Positions 13,025 through 39,509 of a DNA stretch of 64,000 bases are shown piece by piece. Location of the stretch: assembly GCF_003018255.1 (NCBI RefSeq), contig NZ_CP027440.1. One strand, 5' to 3'. Below the pieces are notes generated by a model. It did no database searches and was not told the origin of the DNA. It was given only the letters and a program-made list of their open reading frames with translations. The position numbers and the translations under genes are program-made. This DNA is from Escherichia coli. GTDB taxonomy: Bacteria; Pseudomonadota; Gammaproteobacteria; Enterobacterales; Enterobacteriaceae. How positions within the stretch are numbered: position 1 is the first letter of the stretch; every line of letters starts with the position of its first letter.

Positions 13025-13906
13025 TTAACGCGGTACATTCGCGGGATCGCAATAGTCCAGAAAGCGCCGTAGCGCGTTGGAAAGGTGTTTTTGCCGATGA
13101 TGTATACGCCACAACGTACGCATCAGGCGCGGCAGAGGGACCGCAACTTCACTTAATGTGCCTGCCTGCAATTGATCTTCAATCACCCGTCGCGACAGGC
13201 AACTAATTCCCAACCCATGACGCACCGCATGTTTGATTGCCTCGGAGTTACCTAATTCCATCGCCATCTCAAACTTCGGTAAATGTGACAGCAACAGATA
13301 ATCGACAATCTCCCGCGTGCCGGAGCCGCGTTCACGCAGGATCCACGGCGCAGCGGCCAGCTGTTCTAAGGTGACCGGACCACGAGCCAATGGCGAAGTC
13401 GGCGCGGCGAAAACCACCAGCTCGTCTTCCAGCCACGGTTCAGAAATGATTTCAGTGCTGTGGCACGGTCCTTCAATAAAGCCAATATCAACGCGGAAAT
13501 CCAGCACCGCTTGCATCACGTCCTGGCTGTTCCCAACGCTAAGTTCAATCGGCAACTGCGGATAATCATGGCGATAACGGGCAATGACTGCAGGCAGAAT
13601 GTAGTTACCGATAGTACTACTGGCATAGATACGAATCGCGCCGTTGTCTTCGCGAAACAGTTGTTCGATTTCAACCGCCTGTTCAAGCAGTGCCAACGCG
13701 CGCGGATAGAGCAGCCGCCCGTGTTCATTAACAACCAGTCTTTTCCCCACGCGATCAAACAGTTGCACGCCAAGCTGCCCTTCCAGGTCGGTCAAGGCTG
13801 CGCTCACTGCTGATTGCGACAACGCCAGCATCACCGACGCCTGGGTGGTTGATCCACTTTTCAATACTTCTGCAAAAACTTCCAACTGCCGGAGGGTGAT
13901 GTGCAT
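13025..13906 (-). CDS. yeiE: LysR-type transcriptional regulator
   Basis: N-terminal LysR HTH, 293 aa, divergent from yeiH. Confidence 0.9.
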
Positions 13907-15127: not shown

Positions 15128-15985
15128 ATGAAATACATTGGAGCGCACGTTAGTGCTGCTGGCGGTCTGGCAAATGCCGCAATTCGCGCCGCCGAAATCG
15201 ACGCAACCGCGTTTGCCTTGTTCACCAAAAACCAACGTCAGTGGCGTGCCGCACCGCTCACGACGCAAACCATCGATGAATTCAAAGCCGCCTGTGAAAA
15301 ATATCACTACACATCGGCGCAAATTCTTCCCCACGACAGTTATCTGATTAACCTCGGACATCCGGTTGCTGAAGCTCTGGAAAAATCGCGCGATGCCTTT
15401 ATAGATGAAATGCAGCGTTGCGAACAGCTGGGGCTTTCTTTGCTCAACTTCCACCCTGGCAGCCATCTGATGCAGATTTCAGAAGAGGATTGCCTTGCGC
15501 GTATTGCCGAATCCATCAACATTGCGCTGGATAAAACTCAAGGTGTCACCGCGGTGATTGAAAACACCGCCGGTCAGGGCAGTAACTTAGGGTTTAAATT
15601 CGAACATCTCGCAGCGATTATCGACGGCGTGGAAGATAAATCCCGCGTCGGCGTCTGCATTGATACCTGCCATGCTTTCGCTGCCGGGTATGATTTGCGT
15701 ACTCCTGCCGAATGCGAGAAAACGTTCGCTGATTTTGCCCGTATTGTAGGCTTTAAGTATCTGCGCGGGATGCACCTCAACGATGCGAAAAGCACCTTTG
15801 GCAGCCGCGTTGACCGTCATCATAGCCTCGGCGAAGGCAATATCGGTCATGATGCGTTCCGCTGGATCATGCAAGACGACCGTTTCGACGGCATTCCGCT
15901 GATCCTTGAAACCATCAACCCGGATATCTGGGCAGAAGAGATCGCCTGGCTGAAAGCGCAACAAACTGAAAAAGCGGTGGCCTGA
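15128..15985 (+). CDS. nfo: Endonuclease IV (AP endonuclease)
   Basis: 285 aa, matches E. coli Nfo. Confidence 0.95.
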
Positions 15986-15988
15986 TCG

Positions 15989-17077
15989 ATGAACGACAGG
16001 GAAAAGCAGATTCTTAAAATTTTACGGCGTAACCCGCTGATTCAACAGAACGAAATTGCGGATATGCTGCAAATCAGCCGTTCGCGCGTTGCGGCGCATA
16101 TTATGGATTTAATGCGCAAAGGCCGGATTAAAGGCAAAGGTTACATTCTCACCGAGCAGGAATACTGCGTAGTGGTGGGGACAATCAATATGGATATTCG
16201 CGGGATGGCGGATATCCGTTACCCGCAAGCGGCTTCTCATCCCGGTACCATTCATTGCTCGGCAGGCGGCGTTGGACGCAATATCGCCCACAATCTGGCG
16301 CTGTTAGGCCGCGACGTCCATTTGCTTTCAGTGATTGGCGATGACTTTTATGGCGAAATGCTCCTGGAAGAAACGCGCCGCGCCGGCGTGAATGTCTCCG
16401 GCTGCGTTCGTTTACATGGCCAAAGCACATCGACGTATCTGGCAATTGCCAATCGAGACGATCAAACCGTGCTGGCGATTAACGATACCCATCTGCTGGA
16501 TCAGTTGACACCGCAACTACTGAACGGGTCGCGCGATTTACTTCGTCATGCGGGCGTGGTACTTGCTGATTGTAACCTGACAGCCGAGGCGCTGGAATGG
16601 GTCTTTACCCTCGCTGATGAAATCCCGGTGTTTGTCGATACCGTTTCAGAATTCAAAGCGGGCAAAATCAAACACTGGCTGGCGCATATTCACACCCTGA
16701 AACCCACTTTACCGGAGCTGGAAATTTTATGGGGACAGGCGATCACCAGCGATGCTGACCGTAATGCCGCAGTGAATGCGTTGCATCAGCAAGGCGTTCA
16801 GCAACTGTTTGTTTATTTGCCCGATGAGTCAGTTTATTGCAGCGAAAAGGATGGAGAGCAATTTTTGCTGACAGCGCCAGCGCATACGACAGTAGACAGT
16901 TTTGGTGCTGACGATGGTTTTATGGCGGGCCTGGTATATAGCTTTCTGGAGGGAAACAATTTCCGTGACAGCGCCCGTTTTGCGATGGCCTGCGCGGCAA
17001 TTTCACGCGCCAGCGGCAGCTTAAACAACCCTACCCTGTCTGCCGATAACGCGCTTTCATTAGTGCCGATGGTGTAA
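15989..17077 (+). CDS. yeiI: Putative PfkB-family carbohydrate/nucleoside kinase with N-terminal HTH domain
   Basis: 362 aa. N-terminal winged-helix-like segment followed by a PfkB kinase core (GGVGRNIAHNLALLG) paralogous to PsuK. Starts 3 nt after the nfo stop. Confidence 0.85.
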   Translation: MNDREKQILKILRRNPLIQQNEIADMLQISRSRVAAHIMDLMRKGRIKGKGYILTEQEYCVVVGTINMDIRGMADIRYPQAASHPGTIHCSAGGVGRNIAHNLALLGRDVHLLSVIGDDFYGEMLLEETRRAGVNVSGCVRLHGQSTSTYLAIANRDDQTVLAINDTHLLDQLTPQLLNGSRDLLRHAGVVLADCNLTAEALEWVFTLADEIPVFVDTVSEFKAGKIKHWLAHIHTLKPTLPELEILWGQAITSDADRNAAVNALHQQGVQQLFVYLPDESVYCSEKDGEQFLLTAPAHTTVDSFGADDGFMAGLVYSFLEGNNFRDSARFAMACAAISRASGSLNNPTLSADNALSLVPMV

Positions 17078-19424: not shown

Positions 19425-19592
19425 TGTTTATTTCCTCTGTTTCCAGTTGCGTTATTTTTTCTACAGCAAAGAAAATTCGACCGGGCCGATGATTGAATCT
19501 TAACAACAGCGTAAGTATGCTAAATATGAGAAATCTCATAGCGGATAAACATCGTGAAAGAAATCCACAATAATGACCTTAAGCAGCAATTG

Positions 19593-20252
19593 ATGAGTGA
19601 ATCTGCGTTTAAGGATTGCTTTTCAACGGATGTTTCAGCCGATACGCGGCTGTTTCATTTTTTAGCGCGTGACTACATTGTGCAGGAAGGGCAACAGCCG
19701 TCATGGCTGTTTTATCTGACGCGAGGCCGTGCCAGGCTTTACGCCACGCTTGCTAATGGTCGCGTGTCGCTGATCGATTTCTTTGCCGCTCCCTGTTTTA
19801 TTGGCGAGATTGAGTTAATCGACAAAGACCATGAACCGCGTGCGGTGCAGGCTATTGAAGAGTGTTGGTGCCTTGCGCTCCCTATGAAACATTACCGCCC
19901 GCTGTTATTAAACGACACGCTATTTTTACGAAAACTCTGCGTCACCTTAAGTCATAAAAATTATCGTAATATTGTTTCTTTAACTCAGAATCAATCATTT
20001 CCGTTAGTGAATCGCCTGGCAGCTTTTATATTACTCTCGCAGGAAGGTGATCTTTATCACGAAAAGCATACGCAAGCGGCAGAGTATTTAGGTGTTTCTT
20101 ATCGACATCTTTTATATGTTCTCGCGCAATTCATTCACGACGGTTTATTAATTAAAAGCAAGAAAGGGTATCTCATTAAAAACAGAAAGCAGTTGTCAGG
20201 ACTGGCACTGGAGATGGACCCGGAAAATAAATTCTCAGGGATGATGCAGTAA
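19593..20252 (+). CDS. yeiL: CRP/FNR-family transcriptional regulator
   Basis: Start trimmed to the ATG giving 219 aa (MSESAF...). cNMP-binding-like fold plus C-terminal HTH. Confidence 0.85.
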
Positions 20253-20319: not shown

Positions 20320-21570
20320 TCAAGCTAAACCAATAAAGAACCCGGCAATGGTCGCGCTCATCAGGTTGGAAAGCGTTGCTGCTGCCAGCGCCCGTAAACC
20401 AAGCTGGGCGATTTCCGGTGCGCGTTTTGGCGAAATAGCCGAAAATGCCCCAACGACAACACCGATAGAACCAAAGTTAGCAAAACCACAAAGCGCAAAG
20501 GAGATAATCGCAATGGTTTTCACTTCCAGCGTGCCGCCCGTTTGCAGGTATGGGGAGAAACTCAGGTAAGCGACGAATTCGTTAATCGCCAGTTTCTGCC
20601 CAATCAGGCTACCCGCAAGATTGGCATCACTCCAGTCCACACCCATGATCCACGCCAGCGGTGCCAGCACATAGCCAAAAATACTTTCCAGAGAGGCATT
20701 GGCGAAACCAAACCAGCCGCCAATTCCGCCGATAATGCCGTTGATCAGCGCAATAATTGCGACAAACGCCATTACAACCGTCGCCACACCAGCGGCGATT
20801 TTCAGCCCGGTCATCGCACCGCTCGCCGCCGCTTCGATAAAGCTTTTTGGCGGCGTTTCGCTGAACGACAGATTTTCAAATGTCACCTGCGAAGGCTCGG
20901 TGGCTGGGCTAAGAATACGTGCAAACAAAATACCACCAGGGATCGCCATCAGCGATGCCGCTAACAGGTAGTCAATTGGTACGCCCATTCCGGCATAACC
21001 AATCATCATCGAACCAGCAATGGACGCCATCCCGCTACAAATTGCGGTAAACAACTCGTTGCGATTCATGCGATCGATAAACGGTTTAACGATCGCCGGG
21101 ATCTCATTTTGCCCGAGGAAAATAGTGGTAACCGCAACAAAAGATTCGATTTTGCTGATGTTGAGGGCTTTCTGGAAAATGCTGCCAAGGATGCGAATCA
21201 GCAGCCCCATCACGCCAATGTAGTACAGCAGACTGATGAGCGCAGTGACGAAGATAATCGCCGGAAGTACGCGAAAGGCGAAGATAAAACCCGCACCGTC
21301 AAAGAGGACATCCATTTTCGGCCCGACCAGCGAACCAAAAATGAAGGCGCTACCGGCATCACTGTAAGACATCACTTTATGAACGCCTAATGCCGCCTGT
21401 TCTACCGCCCATTTTCCTGGTGGAAAATAGAGCATGATTCCGCCAATGGCGATTTGTAGCAGCAACGCGGCTCCAACCGTGCGCAAACTGATGCTCTTTT
21501 TATTCACTGACAACAGAAATGCTATTGCCAGTAACACCACCATCCCCACAACACTTCTCATTATATCCAT
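20320..21570 (-). CDS. psuT: NupC-family transporter, putative pseudouridine permease
   Basis: 416 aa, full-length paralog of NupX, last gene of psuK-psuG-psuT. Confidence 0.9.
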   Translation of the reverse strand: MDIMRSVVGMVVLLAIAFLLSVNKKSISLRTVGAALLLQIAIGGIMLYFPPGKWAVEQAALGVHKVMSYSDAGSAFIFGSLVGPKMDVLFDGAGFIFAFRVLPAIIFVTALISLLYYIGVMGLLIRILGSIFQKALNISKIESFVAVTTIFLGQNEIPAIVKPFIDRMNRNELFTAICSGMASIAGSMMIGYAGMGVPIDYLLAASLMAIPGGILFARILSPATEPSQVTFENLSFSETPPKSFIEAAASGAMTGLKIAAGVATVVMAFVAIIALINGIIGGIGGWFGFANASLESIFGYVLAPLAWIMGVDWSDANLAGSLIGQKLAINEFVAYLSFSPYLQTGGTLEVKTIAIISFALCGFANFGSIGVVVGAFSAISPKRAPEIAQLGLRALAAATLSNLMSATIAGFFIGLA

Positions 21571-21636: not shown

Positions 21637-21664
21637 GGGCGACGGCTTTCTGCCCGTCAGAAAT
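21637..21664 (-). other. Conserved 28-nt leader motif, copy 2 (GGGCGACGGCTTTCTGCCCGTCAGAAAT)
   Basis: Abuts the psuG stop codon and lies upstream of psuT. One mismatch to copy 1. Confidence 0.4.
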
Positions 21665-22602
21665 TAACCCGCGAGACGCTGGTATTCTTTGGCTATTTCA
21701 CTCGCCAGGATGGCGTTGTTGAACACCAGCTGGATGTTGGATTTCAGGCTGTCACCGCCGGTCAACTCAGCAACGCGCGCCAGCAGGAATGGCGTACTTT
21801 CTTTACCAATAACACCCTGCGCTTCAGCTTCAGCTACCGCCTGATCGATCGCCGCATTGATAGTGTGTTCCGGCATAGCAAACTGTTCCGGAATCGGGTT
21901 CGCTACCACGAGGCCACCGTTCAGCCCGCTTTGCCATTTCACCGCCATTGCACGGGCAATTTCGCTGGCGCTGTCGAGACGAATGCTCACGTCAAACGGG
22001 CTGGTGCGGCAGAAAAACGCAGGCAGCGCTTTGGTCTGATAGCCAATTAGCGGTACACCGAAAGTTTCTAAATATTCGGTAGTTAAGCCTAAATCGAGAA
22101 TAGATTTCGCCCCGGCACAAACGACGGTGACATTGGTGTGCGCCAGTTCTTGCAAATCGGCAGAAATATCGAAGGTATGTTCCGCCCCGCGATGCACACC
22201 ACCAATTCCCCCGGTGGCAAATACTTTAATTCCGGCAAGCGCCGCAATAATCATCGTTGAAGCAACGGTGGTTGCACCATTTTTTCCGGCGGCAACAACA
22301 AAAGGTAAATCGCGACGACTAACTTTGGTCACGTTATGCCCTTCACGACCCAGCAATTCAATTTCTTCTTTGCTTAAACCCACTTTCATCACGCCGCCAA
22401 TAATGGCGATAGTGGCAGGTACAGCGCCCTGTTTACGAATAGTTTCTTCAACTTCAATTGCGGTCTGGGCATTTTGTGGGAACGGCATCCCGTGAGAAAT
22501 AATGGTCGATTCCAGCGCCACAACCGGTTTTTTGTTTTTTAAAGCGTCCTGCACTTCCGGGGAAATTTGTAATAATTCAGGGGAAATTTTTAATTCAGAC
22601 AT
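21664..22602 (-). CDS. psuG: Pseudouridine-5'-phosphate glycosidase
   Basis: 312 aa, matches YeiN/PsuG. Confidence 0.92.
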   Translation of the reverse strand: MSELKISPELLQISPEVQDALKNKKPVVALESTIISHGMPFPQNAQTAIEVEETIRKQGAVPATIAIIGGVMKVGLSKEEIELLGREGHNVTKVSRRDLPFVVAAGKNGATTVASTMIIAALAGIKVFATGGIGGVHRGAEHTFDISADLQELAHTNVTVVCAGAKSILDLGLTTEYLETFGVPLIGYQTKALPAFFCRTSPFDVSIRLDSASEIARAMAVKWQSGLNGGLVVANPIPEQFAMPEHTINAAIDQAVAEAEAQGVIGKESTPFLLARVAELTGGDSLKSNIQLVFNNAILASEIAKEYQRLAG

Positions 22603-23531
22603 TCTGCGTTCTCCACTAACGATATAACGTTGGCAATCGATAAATCGGGGTTATTGGTGTATTCACAGGAGAGCGCCATTGACGAACATCCCTGTGCGAA
22701 ACGAACAGATTCGGCAAACGGCATTCCGTCTACCCAACACGAAGCAAGTCCCGCCATCATGGCATCGCCCGCTCCGGTAACATTAATGACATTGGTTTTG
22801 ATCGGCGCAGACCAACCACTTTCACCGCTGATATCACTGTAATAAACGCCGTCGCCGCCCATGCTCAATACCAGTCGGTTCAGGCCATGTTGATGGAACC
22901 AGGCAGCAACTTTTGCCACATCTTCACGCCCTGACAAAGCAATCCCACTCAGGGTTTCCGCTTCAAGGCGGTTTGGCTTGAGAGTGTGGATTTGATTTAG
23001 ACGGTCGCGCACTTTGACACATTTCCACGCGGAAACAGGATCGACAAATACGGGTACGTTGGCGGCATTATCCAGAATCCATGCCAGTGCCTCTTCACTG
23101 ATATTACAGTCCGCGACAATGACCTTTGCCCTCTGAATAAATTCACCGTGCTGTGCGAGATATTCAGCTGTAATAGCGTTGCTAATATTCATGTCATTTA
23201 TAGCAACCAGCATTTCACCGGTATTATCGAGTAATGATAAATAGCTCGACGTATTTTCTCCCGGCACAATCAGGCATTTATCGACATAAACACCAGATTG
23301 ATTGGTTTGCGTTAGCAGCGATTGACCATAAAAATCACTGCCTACGGCGCTCAGTAGCCAGGCTTTATTCCCCAGCAACGCCAGGTTTTGTGCAATATTG
23401 CGCCCTACTCCACCAGGCGTAAACTTTATTTTACCTGGATTTGAATCCGCATAATTTAATGATTCATGTGAATATCCGGCGACATCAATATTCGCCGAAC
23501 CTATAATTACGACATAATCCTTTTCGCGCAT
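22590..23531 (-). CDS. psuK: Pseudouridine kinase (PfkB family)
   Basis: 313 aa, PfkB motifs GGVGRNIAQNLALLG and GAGDAMMAG. Overlaps psuG by 13 nt. Confidence 0.92.
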   Translation of the reverse strand: MREKDYVVIIGSANIDVAGYSHESLNYADSNPGKIKFTPGGVGRNIAQNLALLGNKAWLLSAVGSDFYGQSLLTQTNQSGVYVDKCLIVPGENTSSYLSLLDNTGEMLVAINDMNISNAITAEYLAQHGEFIQRAKVIVADCNISEEALAWILDNAANVPVFVDPVSAWKCVKVRDRLNQIHTLKPNRLEAETLSGIALSGREDVAKVAAWFHQHGLNRLVLSMGGDGVYYSDISGESGWSAPIKTNVINVTGAGDAMMAGLASCWVDGMPFAESVRFAQGCSSMALSCEYTNNPDLSIANVISLVENAECLN

Positions 23532-23598
23532 AGCACGTCCTCTGGTAAAAAATTACCAACCCTGTCAATCCACAAGAATATAGATACTGCAAAGACGG

Positions 23599-23634
23599 TT
23601 TAAACATGTGTTCATATTTAAACATGTGCTCATA
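23599..23634. repeat. Perfect tandem 18-bp direct repeat (TTTAAACATGTG[T/C]TCATA x2) upstream of psuK
   Basis: Two adjacent units differing at one position, 68-103 bp upstream of the psuK ATG. A partial third copy follows. Confidence 0.6.
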
Positions 23635-23771
23635 GTATGCATGTTTTACGTAAAGTAAATTACCGCCAGAGATGCAAAATGGGCAGATTTGAGCAGGCTC
23701 ACAAAACGCGATTAAATGCCTGAATTATAAAAACGGGGAATTTGTGACGGAATGCACAGAACAGGAACACT

Positions 23772-23797
23772 AAAAAAGGGCAGAAATTAATCTGCCC
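23772..23797 (-). terminator. Rho-independent terminator (GGGCAGA-ttaatt-TCTGCCC plus U-run on minus strand) distal to fruA
   Basis: Stem-loop followed by six U on the minus-strand transcript. Confidence 0.6.
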
Positions 23798-23913
23798 TTG
23801 AGGAAATAACCTTAGTGTTTGATGAAAGTTTCAGGTTTCCACTAAAAGATAAAACCATTTAAATTCATAAAATTACATTCACAAACCGGTCATTCTCTTT
23901 GCGCGCATCAAAT

Positions 23914-23944
23914 GTTCCAGGGCAGGAAATTTCTGCCCTGGAAC
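23914..23944 (-). terminator. 12-bp perfect stem-loop immediately 3' of fruA (GTTCCAGGGCAG ... CTGCCCTGGAAC)
   Basis: Near-perfect 31-nt palindrome 11 nt past the fruA stop. U-tract is weak. Confidence 0.45.
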
Positions 23945-23954
23945 ACACCTTTTA

Positions 23955-27831: not shown

Positions 27832-28098
27832 AGAGAGCATAATACTTTTGTTTCAGCACGCAAGGAAAGCCGTAAAGTTATGAGCAAAAGTTTGATGTGC
27901 TGCACAATTTTTTGTCATTTTTCCTAATTGCTGATGGGAAAATCCGTTATCAGCAATTTCATTTCAGCAGCGTCAGCAGCCAATCAGCAACAGTGAAATG
28001 GCATTTTGATTATTCGTGGCGCTTTTGATTTCGCTGTCTGTTTATTTTCTGACAAGCAGCGTAAACTCCGCGTCTTCCTCTTCCAGTGATCGACCAGC

Positions 28099-38414: not shown

Positions 38415-39509
38415 ATGGGCGCTTATCTGATTCGCCGTCTGTTGCTGGTGATCCCAACGTTATGGGCGATTATCACTATCAACTTTTTCATCGTGCAAAT
38501 TGCGCCTGGCGGTCCGGTCGACCAGGCCATCGCCGCCATTGAGTTTGGTAATACTGGTGTATTACCCGGTGCAGGCGGTGAAGGTGTTCGCGCCAGCCAT
38601 GCACAAACGGGCGTCGGTAATATCAGCGACAGTAATTACCGTGGCGGACGCGGATTGGATCCAGAAGTGATCGCCGAGATCACTCATCGCTACGGTTTCG
38701 ATAAGCCGATCCACGAACGTTACTTCAAAATGCTCTGGGACTACATCCGTTTTGATTTTGGCGACAGCCTTTTTCGCAGCGCCTCGGTGCTGACGCTGAT
38801 TAAAGACAGTCTGCCGGTCTCCATCACCCTCGGATTGTGGAGCACGCTGATTATCTATCTGGTGTCGATTCCGTTAGGCATTCGCAAAGCTGTTTATAAT
38901 GGGAGCCGTTTTGACGTCTGGAGTAGTGCATTTATCATCATCGGCTACGCCATTCCGGCCTTTTTGTTTGCCATCCTGCTGATTGTCTTCTTCGCGGGCG
39001 GCAGCTATTTCGACCTGTTCCCTCTGCGCGGCCTGGTTTCCGCTAACTTTGATTCGCTGCCGTGGTATCAGAAAATCACCGATTATCTGTGGCATATCAC
39101 GCTGCCGGTGCTGGCGACAGTGATTGGCGGCTTTGCGGCTCTGACCATGCTGACAAAAAACTCATTCCTTGATGAAGTGCGTAAGCAATACGTGGTGACG
39201 GCACGTGCGAAAGGGGTAAGTGAAAAAAATATTCTCTGGAAACATGTGTTCCGCAACGCCATGCTGCTGGTGATTGCCGGTTTTCCGGCGACGTTTATCA
39301 GCATGTTTTTTACCGGCTCGCTGCTGATTGAGGTGATGTTTTCACTCAATGGTCTTGGCTTACTGGGCTACGAAGCGACCGTCTCGCGCGATTATCCTGT
39401 AATGTTTGGTACCTTGTATATTTTCACCCTGATTGGCCTGCTGCTGAATATTGTCAGTGATATCAGCTATACGCTGGTCGATCCGCGTATAGATTTTGAG
39501 GGACGTTAA
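38415..39509 (+). CDS. yejB: ABC transporter permease
   Basis: 364 aa, starts 1 nt after the yejA stop. Confidence 0.92.

Follow-up and report, generated by a model that had tools for sequence, protein, structure and literature searches.

Which protein, acting at which sites, controls transcription of psuKGT, the pseudouridine-catabolic operon of Escherichia coli? The literature searched on psuK regulation, PsuR, YeiI and the targets of YeiL names no psuK regulator. The 64-kb stretch of E. coli DNA that was analysed here (64,000 nucleotides, the window) contains the operon and, upstream of psuK, a tandem pair of 18-mers that an earlier note had read, from the letters alone, as a transcription factor binding-site array controlling psuKGT. 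Phylogenetic footprinting strongly supports that reading. The form of the array, its place on the promoter and the identity of its probable owner are the subjects of what follows.

The locus and its tandem 18-mers

psuG and psuT lie downstream of psuK, and fruA lies upstream. The features of the locus are:

15989..17077, plus strand: yeiI, winged helix (HTH_24) followed by PfkB; proposed operator binder
19554..20252, plus strand: yeiL, CRP/FNR family; alternative local regulator, beside psuT
20320..21570, minus strand: psuT, nucleoside transporter
21664..22602, minus strand: psuG, pseudouridine-5'-phosphate glycosidase (Indigoidine_A, E 2e-132)
22590..23531, minus strand: psuK, pseudouridine kinase, no HTH
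23599..23634, no strand assigned: tandem 18-mer pair, head to tail, 17/18 identical

The A of the psuK ATG is at 23531 on the minus strand, which places the pair 68-103 nt upstream, as had been reported. Unit 1 (23599-23616, TTTAAACATGTGTTCATA) and unit 2 (23617-23634, TTTAAACATGTGCTCATA) were also correctly located and transcribed, but the description of the repeat as perfect is too strong: a single base differs, and TRF reports 94% matches with a score of 65. Two-copy repeats with a TRF score of at least 40 occur eight times in the window and three of them score about 65, so that the weight of the repeat has to rest on its conservation. The K-12 sequence of the pair is the same as that of the window; the 153 nt closest to psuK do not differ between this strain and K-12, whereas the distal (fruA-side) 270 nt contain ~19 differences.

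Other features of the locus can be recorded at this point. A 21-bp tandem repeat spans the psuK/psuG overlap (22555-22594) and specifies a repeated peptide, ELKISP/ELLQISP, at the PsuG N-terminus; yeiI starts 3 nt past the nfo stop codon (15985-15989). A UTI89-like allele of the whole yeiI-to-fruA locus, ~89% identical and with nupX reduced to a fragment, is present in ~1000-1200 E. coli genomes. An apparent loss of psuK in ~1200 E. coli genomes proved to be an artefact of megablast sensitivity, these genomes carrying the ~89% identical allele instead. yeiI itself falls into two allele classes, the divergent one (~81% nucleotide identity) being found in 2060 genomes, and the yeiI and promoter alleles are not strictly linked: NCCP 13983 combines the divergent yeiI with the standard promoter.

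The conserved element is a pair of 12-bp palindromes

psuK loci were collected from 11 species (of Escherichia, Buttiauxella, Citrobacter and Raoultella) and their upstream regions were aligned as 12 sequences; Salmonella and UTI89, a B2-type E. coli, were added to the comparison afterwards. A CRP-like site, ATTTACTTT, TAYYAT and four half-sites are conserved throughout the 12 (the Escherichia sequences include E. albertii), with no indels between these conserved elements and with diverging flanks, and the layout in Salmonella and UTI89 is the same. The conserved unit is a 12-bp palindrome, RAACA-NN-TGTTY, that occurs twice with centres 18-19 bp apart; its dyad symmetry and its size are those of a site for a dimeric HTH protein. 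In the window the two copies are:

23620..23631, minus strand: predicted operator site A, GAGCA-CA-TGTTT in the psuK sense, immediately 3' of the predicted -10 hexamer, at about -6 to +6; 20/20 orthologous promoters have it
23602..23613, minus strand: predicted operator site B, GAACA-CA-TGTTT in the psuK sense, 18 bp from site A (about +13 to +24)

Read in the psuK sense from the -10 hexamer, the order is GARCA-YR-TGTTY, six variable bases, and GAACA-YR-TGYTY. The 18-mers do lie in tandem, but the functional units within them are inverted repeats. Across the 40 sites of 20 loci the core positions are 95-100% conserved (A in 39/40, C in 38/40, A in 38/40, G in 40/40), while the central dinucleotide is variously CA, TG, TA, CG, AA, GG, AT or AG. 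ACATGT, which the earlier note had singled out as the core, is present in this strain; because the central dinucleotide varies among loci it is not the conserved feature. Palindromy is perfect or nearly so in site B of E. albertii and in the sites of Shewanella, Aliivibrio and Salmonella. The weaker matches, at 7/10 each, are Xenorhabdus sites A and B and Salmonella site B.

The half-sites keep their position and spacing in at least 11 genera and 20 loci; among relatives with the operon, to which the earlier note had looked for a decision, they were found in all that were examined. The identity of the 18-mers to each other is not kept. It is 12/18 in UTI89 and only ~12/18 in E. albertii and Citrobacter as well, all of which retain the four half-sites; the near-perfect 18-bp direct repeat is therefore a derived trait of one E. 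coli lineage.

The pairing can be scored by half-site matches, with a threshold of at least 8/10 per site and centres 18-19 bp apart. Pairs at this threshold are expected by chance 0.32 times per 64 kb of shuffled sequence, and one stands immediately ahead of the operon in each of E. coli, Serratia, Yersinia, Photorhabdus, Pasteurella, Shewanella and Aliivibrio. Other copies of the motif in the window (at 13655 within yeiE, at 39240 within a coding region and at 27882 upstream of fruB) either stand alone or form weak pairs, lie in coding or AT-rich sequence, and are consistent with chance. The 18-bp spacing of centres puts the two sites on different faces of the helix, which is unusual for cooperatively binding dimers.

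Within E. coli, the 71-bp promoter-operator segment is 100% identical in 2756/4213 genomes, and the variants that were sampled differ nearly always at non-footprint positions. The sole footprint exception among them is GPEC1405, with C>T in the GAGCA half-site of site A. E. coli SCPM-O-B-8794 has a 14-bp deletion just downstream of site B that leaves both operators intact. These sites, as judged from their sequence and conservation, are a genuine and previously undescribed, though mechanistically ordinary, pair of predicted operators at the psuK promoter.

The psuK promoter and its recurrent mutation

The promoter elements next to site A are:

23632..23637, minus strand: predicted -10 hexamer TACTAT; TAYYAT/TACAGT in 13 psuK-type promoters, with no indels between elements
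23642..23646, minus strand: AAACA half-site-like block in the promoter spacer, conserved in the alignment
23654..23659, minus strand: predicted -35 hexamer TTTACT, conserved; its base 23657 is the site of a recurrent SNP

The spacer between TTTACT and TACTAT is 16 nt long and carries AAAC..GC; the combination TTTACT-16/17-TAYYAT is conserved. What had been described as a partial third copy of the repeat comes down to the single AAACA half-site of this spacer. Site A directly follows a TACTAT/TAAAAC hexamer in 16/20 loci. The sites of Serratia, Yersinia and Photorhabdus follow the promoter-like pair TTTACT-17-TAAAAC; the loci of Xenorhabdus, Pasteurella, Shewanella and Aliivibrio have no clear hexamer immediately before site A.

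The predicted start of transcription lies ~7 nt past the -10 hexamer, at ~23625, so that the two sites would span about -6 to +24. Two published transcription start site data sets have no entry near psuK, and positions relative to +1 consequently refer to the predicted promoter. Sites so placed have the geometry of repressor-operators. They do not form the array at a distance upstream that the earlier note had pictured: they abut the predicted -10 hexamer and cover the predicted start, a repressor-type rather than an activator-type position.

The psuK/fruA intergenic region is known as a hot spot of adaptive change. An identical A>C change 126 nt upstream of psuK recurred in mouse-gut evolution (PMC7518454, PMC9509342), and the psuK/fruA intergenic A>C has been found in many mice at position 2257444 of MG1655, version 2 (PMC7518454, PMC9509342, PMC6731689, PMC10340439). 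An A>C change designated psuKp arose in three long-term stationary-phase populations and is recorded in the supplement to that work as 'intergenic (-126/+297)' (PMC7858067). The 1978-nt offset between MG1655 genome versions was confirmed with three srlR mutations that reproduce the published amino-acid changes, and the mouse-gut and stationary-phase SNPs both map to position 23657 of the window, the third base of the -35 hexamer. On the psuK strand the SNP turns TTTACT into TTGACT. Because a recurrent adaptive SNP improves its -35 hexamer, the promoter assignment has independent support.

Wild-type K-12 apparently needs a promoter-up mutation to profit from the operon, and for this reason induction by pseudouridine alone may be inefficient. 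Early work by Breitman reportedly found that pyrimidine auxotrophs of E. coli need mutations to use pseudouridine, a requirement that fits a normally near-silent psuK promoter.

Five complete genomes carry the TTGACT allele: the laboratory K-12 derivatives S17-1, ST18, ER1821R and ER2683, and the pigeon isolate fEC.1. It is fixed in all five and otherwise absent from about 4200 complete genomes. Mobile elements have also entered the region: in NZ_LR883050.1 an IS1 separates the promoter spacer from the -10 hexamer precisely at their boundary, and in NZ_CM149870.1 an IS200/IS605 transposase gene occupies the psuK/fruA intergenic region.

CRP-like sites and the upstream edge of the control region

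Upstream of the promoter are:

23688..23703, minus strand: CRP-like site TGTGAGCCTGCTCAAA, centred ~70.5 bp before the predicted start
23743..23758, minus strand: a further and weaker CRP-like site, TGTGCATTCCGTCACA, lying 55 bp farther upstream; only partly conserved in other genera
23776..23799, minus strand: terminator-like hairpin with T-run that would end the upstream fruBKA transcript; conserved in Escherichia and Buttiauxella

The proximal site, TGTGA-GCCTGC-TCAAA, matches 9/10 core positions of TGTGA-N6-TCACA, and its TTGTGA and TCAWATCT are present in all 12 aligned sequences and in Salmonella. Class I CRP sites are centred near -61.5, -71.5, -82.5 or the like; here the centre would be at -70.5 if the predicted +1 is 23625, and at -68.5 to -71.5 for starts at 23627-23624. 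This predicted site makes the psuK promoter a candidate for CRP dependence. SELEX with the sigma-70 holoenzyme gave a constitutive promoter signal at nfo>yeiI and none for psuK (PMC3946193), and PsuG co-varies with CRP-regulon proteins (PMC11039860). In the latter work, recA mutants treated with ciprofloxacin have PsuG and PsuK among their most under-expressed proteins (log2FC down to -6, in 4/6 strains), with SOS proteins and many CRP-regulon proteins falling alongside (PMC11039860); since so many CRP-regulon members are in the same list, the recA effect on PsuG and PsuK may be physiological, and it is not taken here as SOS control. A CytR-type promoter was considered and rejected: the CRP-like centres are at about -70.5 and -125.5, and there are no conserved TGCAA repeats between the CRP-like sites in Escherichia.

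The terminator-like hairpin at 23776..23799 forms the distal edge of the psuK control region. It is one of two related GGGCAG...CTGCCC hairpins (23776-23799 and 23913-23945, ~140 bp apart, downstream of fruA) whose arms share 12 identical nt. Of the two, one comes right after the stop codon of fruA; the T-run belongs to the other.

The psuK leader

Between the operators and psuK lies one further element:

23542..23559, minus strand: 5'-UTR hairpin TTGGTAA-tttt-TTACCAG abutting the Shine-Dalgarno sequence; its stem shows compensatory substitutions both between species and among E. coli

Most E. coli have the stem TGGTAA/TTACCA; in E. albertii it reads TGGTAA/TTGCCA, which includes a G.U pair. 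UTI89 and Citrobacter share TGGCAA/TTGCCA, Salmonella has TGGCAT/ATGCCA, and the loop measures 4-6 nt. This pattern of substitution suggests a conserved leader RNA structure. The sole match of the leader to Rfam covariance models has an E value of 0.83, far below the gathering score. A sigma-54 reading of TGGCAA...TTGCC near the Shine-Dalgarno sequence was discarded: E. coli is without the GC element, and the spacing varies.

YeiI and the winged helix-PfkB proteins

The function of YeiI is described in the literature as uncharacterised, and its NCBIfam label is 'sugar kinase' only. It consists of an HTH_24 winged helix (residues 1-48, E 2.7e-11) followed by a PfkB domain, and is 39% identical to PsuK over the full kinase length (38% in the protein alignment). 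Fusion proteins of the same winged helix-PfkB (wHTH-PfkB) architecture are closer to E. coli PsuK than is YeiI: 53-60% identical in Enterobacterales and Pasteurella and 41-45% in Shewanella and Aliivibrio. The winged helix is nearly invariant across the fusions and YeiI, and in the two E. coli alleles of YeiI it is identical at 56/58 residues against 86% overall. None of the solved structures covers the wHTH-PfkB architecture.

The case for YeiI as the binder rests on linkage, on co-occurrence with the motif and on the comparison of domains, which together make it the best supported of the candidates that had been put forward. A wHTH-PfkB gene heads the psuG(-psuT) operon in Serratia, Yersinia, Photorhabdus, Xenorhabdus, Pasteurella, Shewanella and Aliivibrio, and adjoins psuT-psuG-psuK in Salmonella and Affinibrenneria; regulator gene and operon are thus linked at 9/9 non-Escherichia loci examined. 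Tandem sites of at least 8/10 each precede the operon at six of the seven fusion-type loci with complete upstream sequence, Xenorhabdus having 7/10 per site. A wHTH-PfkB protein is the sole DNA-binding protein common to all these loci. Species in which the sites lie before an HTH-less psuK (C. braakii, C. werkmanii, B. gaviniae and E. albertii) have YeiI orthologues, and yeiI is present in 5422/5426 E. coli genomes. The window holds no copy of the tandem motif near nfo-yeiI, and there is accordingly no sign of YeiI autoregulation in E. coli.

S30, N143 and K170 (PsuK numbering), which determine pseudouridine affinity and the substrate-induced conformational change (PMC9061257), are invariant across the alignment of PsuK, YeiI and fusion proteins. 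In the YeiI clade alone, GAGD has become GADD or GADE and the N of NxxE has become T or S. The PROSITE-type PfkB pattern tolerates GADD, for which reason YeiI may still be an active kinase. Retention of the pseudouridine-contacting residues together with non-canonical catalytic motifs makes pseudouridine or its 5'-phosphate the probable inducer.

Only ~10-45 nt separate the sites from the start codon in fusion-type operons. The annotated ATG of the Serratia and Yersinia wHTH-psuK genes lies inside operator A (AAACTCATGTTT and AGACACATGTTT, respectively). Translation probably begins 27 nt farther downstream, which would make the proteins 363 amino acids long, as in Photorhabdus and Xenorhabdus, rather than 372.

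Other readings of the sites

LexA, CytR, RutR, DeoR and NrdR motifs were compared with the sites by eye, as consensus sequences, and none fits as owner of the sites; the E. coli LexA box CTGT-N8-ACAG is absent from both strands of 23590-23710. It is nonetheless possible, if unlikely, that the operators are genuine and serve another binder: YeiL, which would recognise TGTTY-N6-RAACA where the two palindromes meet, RutR, which senses uracil, or some other factor. YeiL had been suggested for trial along with YeiI; yeiL adjoins psuT in E. coli, and the junction sequence TGTTTAAATATGAACA is as well conserved as the palindromes and is spaced 5-N6-5, as CRP-family sites are. However, yeiL is missing from every non-Escherichia locus examined that keeps the sites (those of Serratia, Yersinia, Photorhabdus, Pasteurella, Shewanella, Aliivibrio and Salmonella), which makes it an unlikely binder. 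Uracil is a product of the pathway, and the RutR box, of consensus TTGACCAnnTGGTCAA with CC at the centre of its half-site TTGACCA, is one base per half-site away from the operator; yet the C at half-site position 3 that defines a RutR box is found in 0/40 sites (A in 35, G in 5). Against any such owner stands the wHTH-PfkB protein as the only DNA-binding protein that all the loci have in common.

The remaining readings do without a repressor at the start site. A consensus scan finds a promoter-like match (9/12) downstream, with a -35 hexamer TTTAAA at 23604-23599 and a -10 hexamer TATATT ending at 23577, for which the palindromes might be activator sites, one overlapping the -35 hexamer and the other upstream of it. 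We regard this as improbable: TTTAAA/TATATT is not conserved, E. albertii, UTI89, Citrobacter, Buttiauxella and Salmonella having a different sequence, and its spacing is altered by the SCPM-O-B-8794 deletion; it is instead TTTACT-16/17-TAYYAT that is conserved and whose -35 hexamer the recurrent SNP improves. The short distance from sites to start codon in fusion-type operons leaves no room for a downstream promoter there. The units might alternatively act as RNA, pairing in the 5' UTR as an 11-bp hairpin that affects mRNA stability or translation, and the predicted fold of the 99-nt leader does pair them (MFE -25 kcal/mol, z = -2.4). Such a hairpin requires the 18-mer identity that is peculiar to one E. 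coli lineage, whereas complementarity of the flanks is lacking in Citrobacter, Buttiauxella, UTI89 and E. albertii, which all keep the four DNA half-sites; conservation is poor from the sites to the Shine-Dalgarno-proximal hairpin, no Rfam family matches the leader, and an RNA-level role is very improbable. As for a functionless local duplication arising by chance, the ~3 two-copy repeats of similar score in the window speak for it, but the half-site position and spacing kept in at least 11 genera and the invariance of the psuK-proximal 153 nt against the ~19 differences in the distal 270 nt effectively refute it, and we give it almost no credence.

A model for control of psuKGT

Repression by YeiI is thus the preferred reading. 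On balance it is probable that the 12-bp operator pair serves a CRP-assisted psuKGT promoter, repressed most likely by YeiI, with release by pseudouridine or pseudouridine-5'-phosphate. A sigma-70 promoter with a weak -35 hexamer (TTTACT), a 16-nt spacer and TACTAT would be assisted from a class-I-type CRP site near -70.5. Two YeiI dimers, one per palindrome, would occupy the -10/+1 region and block either open-complex formation or promoter escape. Pseudouridine or its 5'-phosphate, bound in the kinase-like pocket, would release YeiI, and the operon would be off unless CRP-cAMP is present and the regulator has been released.

A wider proposition, which in our estimate is evenly balanced between being right and wrong, is that pseudouridine catabolism is governed by a family of enzyme-derived regulators not recognised before, the YeiI-type wHTH-PfkB proteins. 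Many gamma-proteobacteria would have one protein that serves as pseudouridine kinase and as autorepressor of its own psuK-psuG-psuT operon, through tandem RAACA-NN-TGTTY operators; in Enterobacteriaceae the gene would have been duplicated and its functions split between PsuK, which has no HTH, and the sensor-regulator YeiI, whose catalytic motifs have degenerated. The -126 A>C change would be the cheapest way to raise a weak, repressed promoter.

The consequences are several. The pseudouridine-catabolic operon of E. coli gains a regulatory architecture, consisting of a CRP-like site, a weak promoter and a dual predicted operator, and a y-gene, yeiI, gains a testable function. A highly reproducible adaptive mutation of K-12, selected in the mouse gut and in long-term stationary phase, is explained as a -35 up-mutation directly upstream of the operators. 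Operator position corrects the start codons of the Serratia and Yersinia fusion genes, which are likely mis-annotated, and the comparison offers a route by which one bifunctional kinase-repressor could have given rise to an enzyme gene and a distinct sensor gene. Native control elements are identified for pseudouridine bioproduction strains, in which psuK and psuG are already manipulated. If confirmed, the assignment of YeiI would add a new scaffold to the enzyme-derived regulators.

Comparison with known systems

The Gram-positive SOS (Cheo) box, CGAACATATGTTCG, is bound by LexA/DinR. The psuK sites share its GAAC-N4-GTTC symmetry, and site B of E. albertii, cGAACATATGTTCt, matches it at 13/14 positions; the E. 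coli LexA, however, recognises the CTGT-N8-ACAG that is lacking here, and this is a resemblance only. The nucleoside promoters controlled by CytR and CRP (deoP2, cdd, udp) have a proximal CRP site at -41.5 and TGCAA repeats for CytR. Like these, the psu operon catabolises and transports a nucleoside and has two CRP-like sites ~55 bp apart; unlike them, its proximal CRP-like site is near -70.5 and no conserved TGCAA repeats accompany it in E. coli.

Catabolic promoters of the lac/gal type combine CRP activation with a specific repressor whose operators overlap the transcription start. The psuK promoter resembles them in its weak -35 hexamer, its upstream CRP-like site at a class-I-like distance from the predicted start and its palindromic operators at and just after the predicted +1, and the selection of a single-base promoter-up change, here in the -35 hexamer, recalls the promoter-up alleles of lac. 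It differs in having two adjacent 12-bp operators 18 bp apart, both past the -10 hexamer, with no distant auxiliary operator seen, and in that YeiI, its proposed repressor, is not of the LacI/GalR family.

The proposed repressor instead resembles the enzyme-derived or bifunctional one-component regulators BirA, NadR, the ROK-family proteins NagC and Mlc, and archaeal RbkR. In common with these, YeiI has a winged helix fused to a homologue of a pathway enzyme with its substrate pocket retained, and the wHTH-PfkB gene is linked to, or part of, its putative target operon. What sets YeiI apart from them is its scaffold, a PfkB ribokinase-fold kinase, and the arrangement in Enterobacteriaceae, where the kinase PsuK and its HTH-bearing paralogue YeiI are the products of separate genes.
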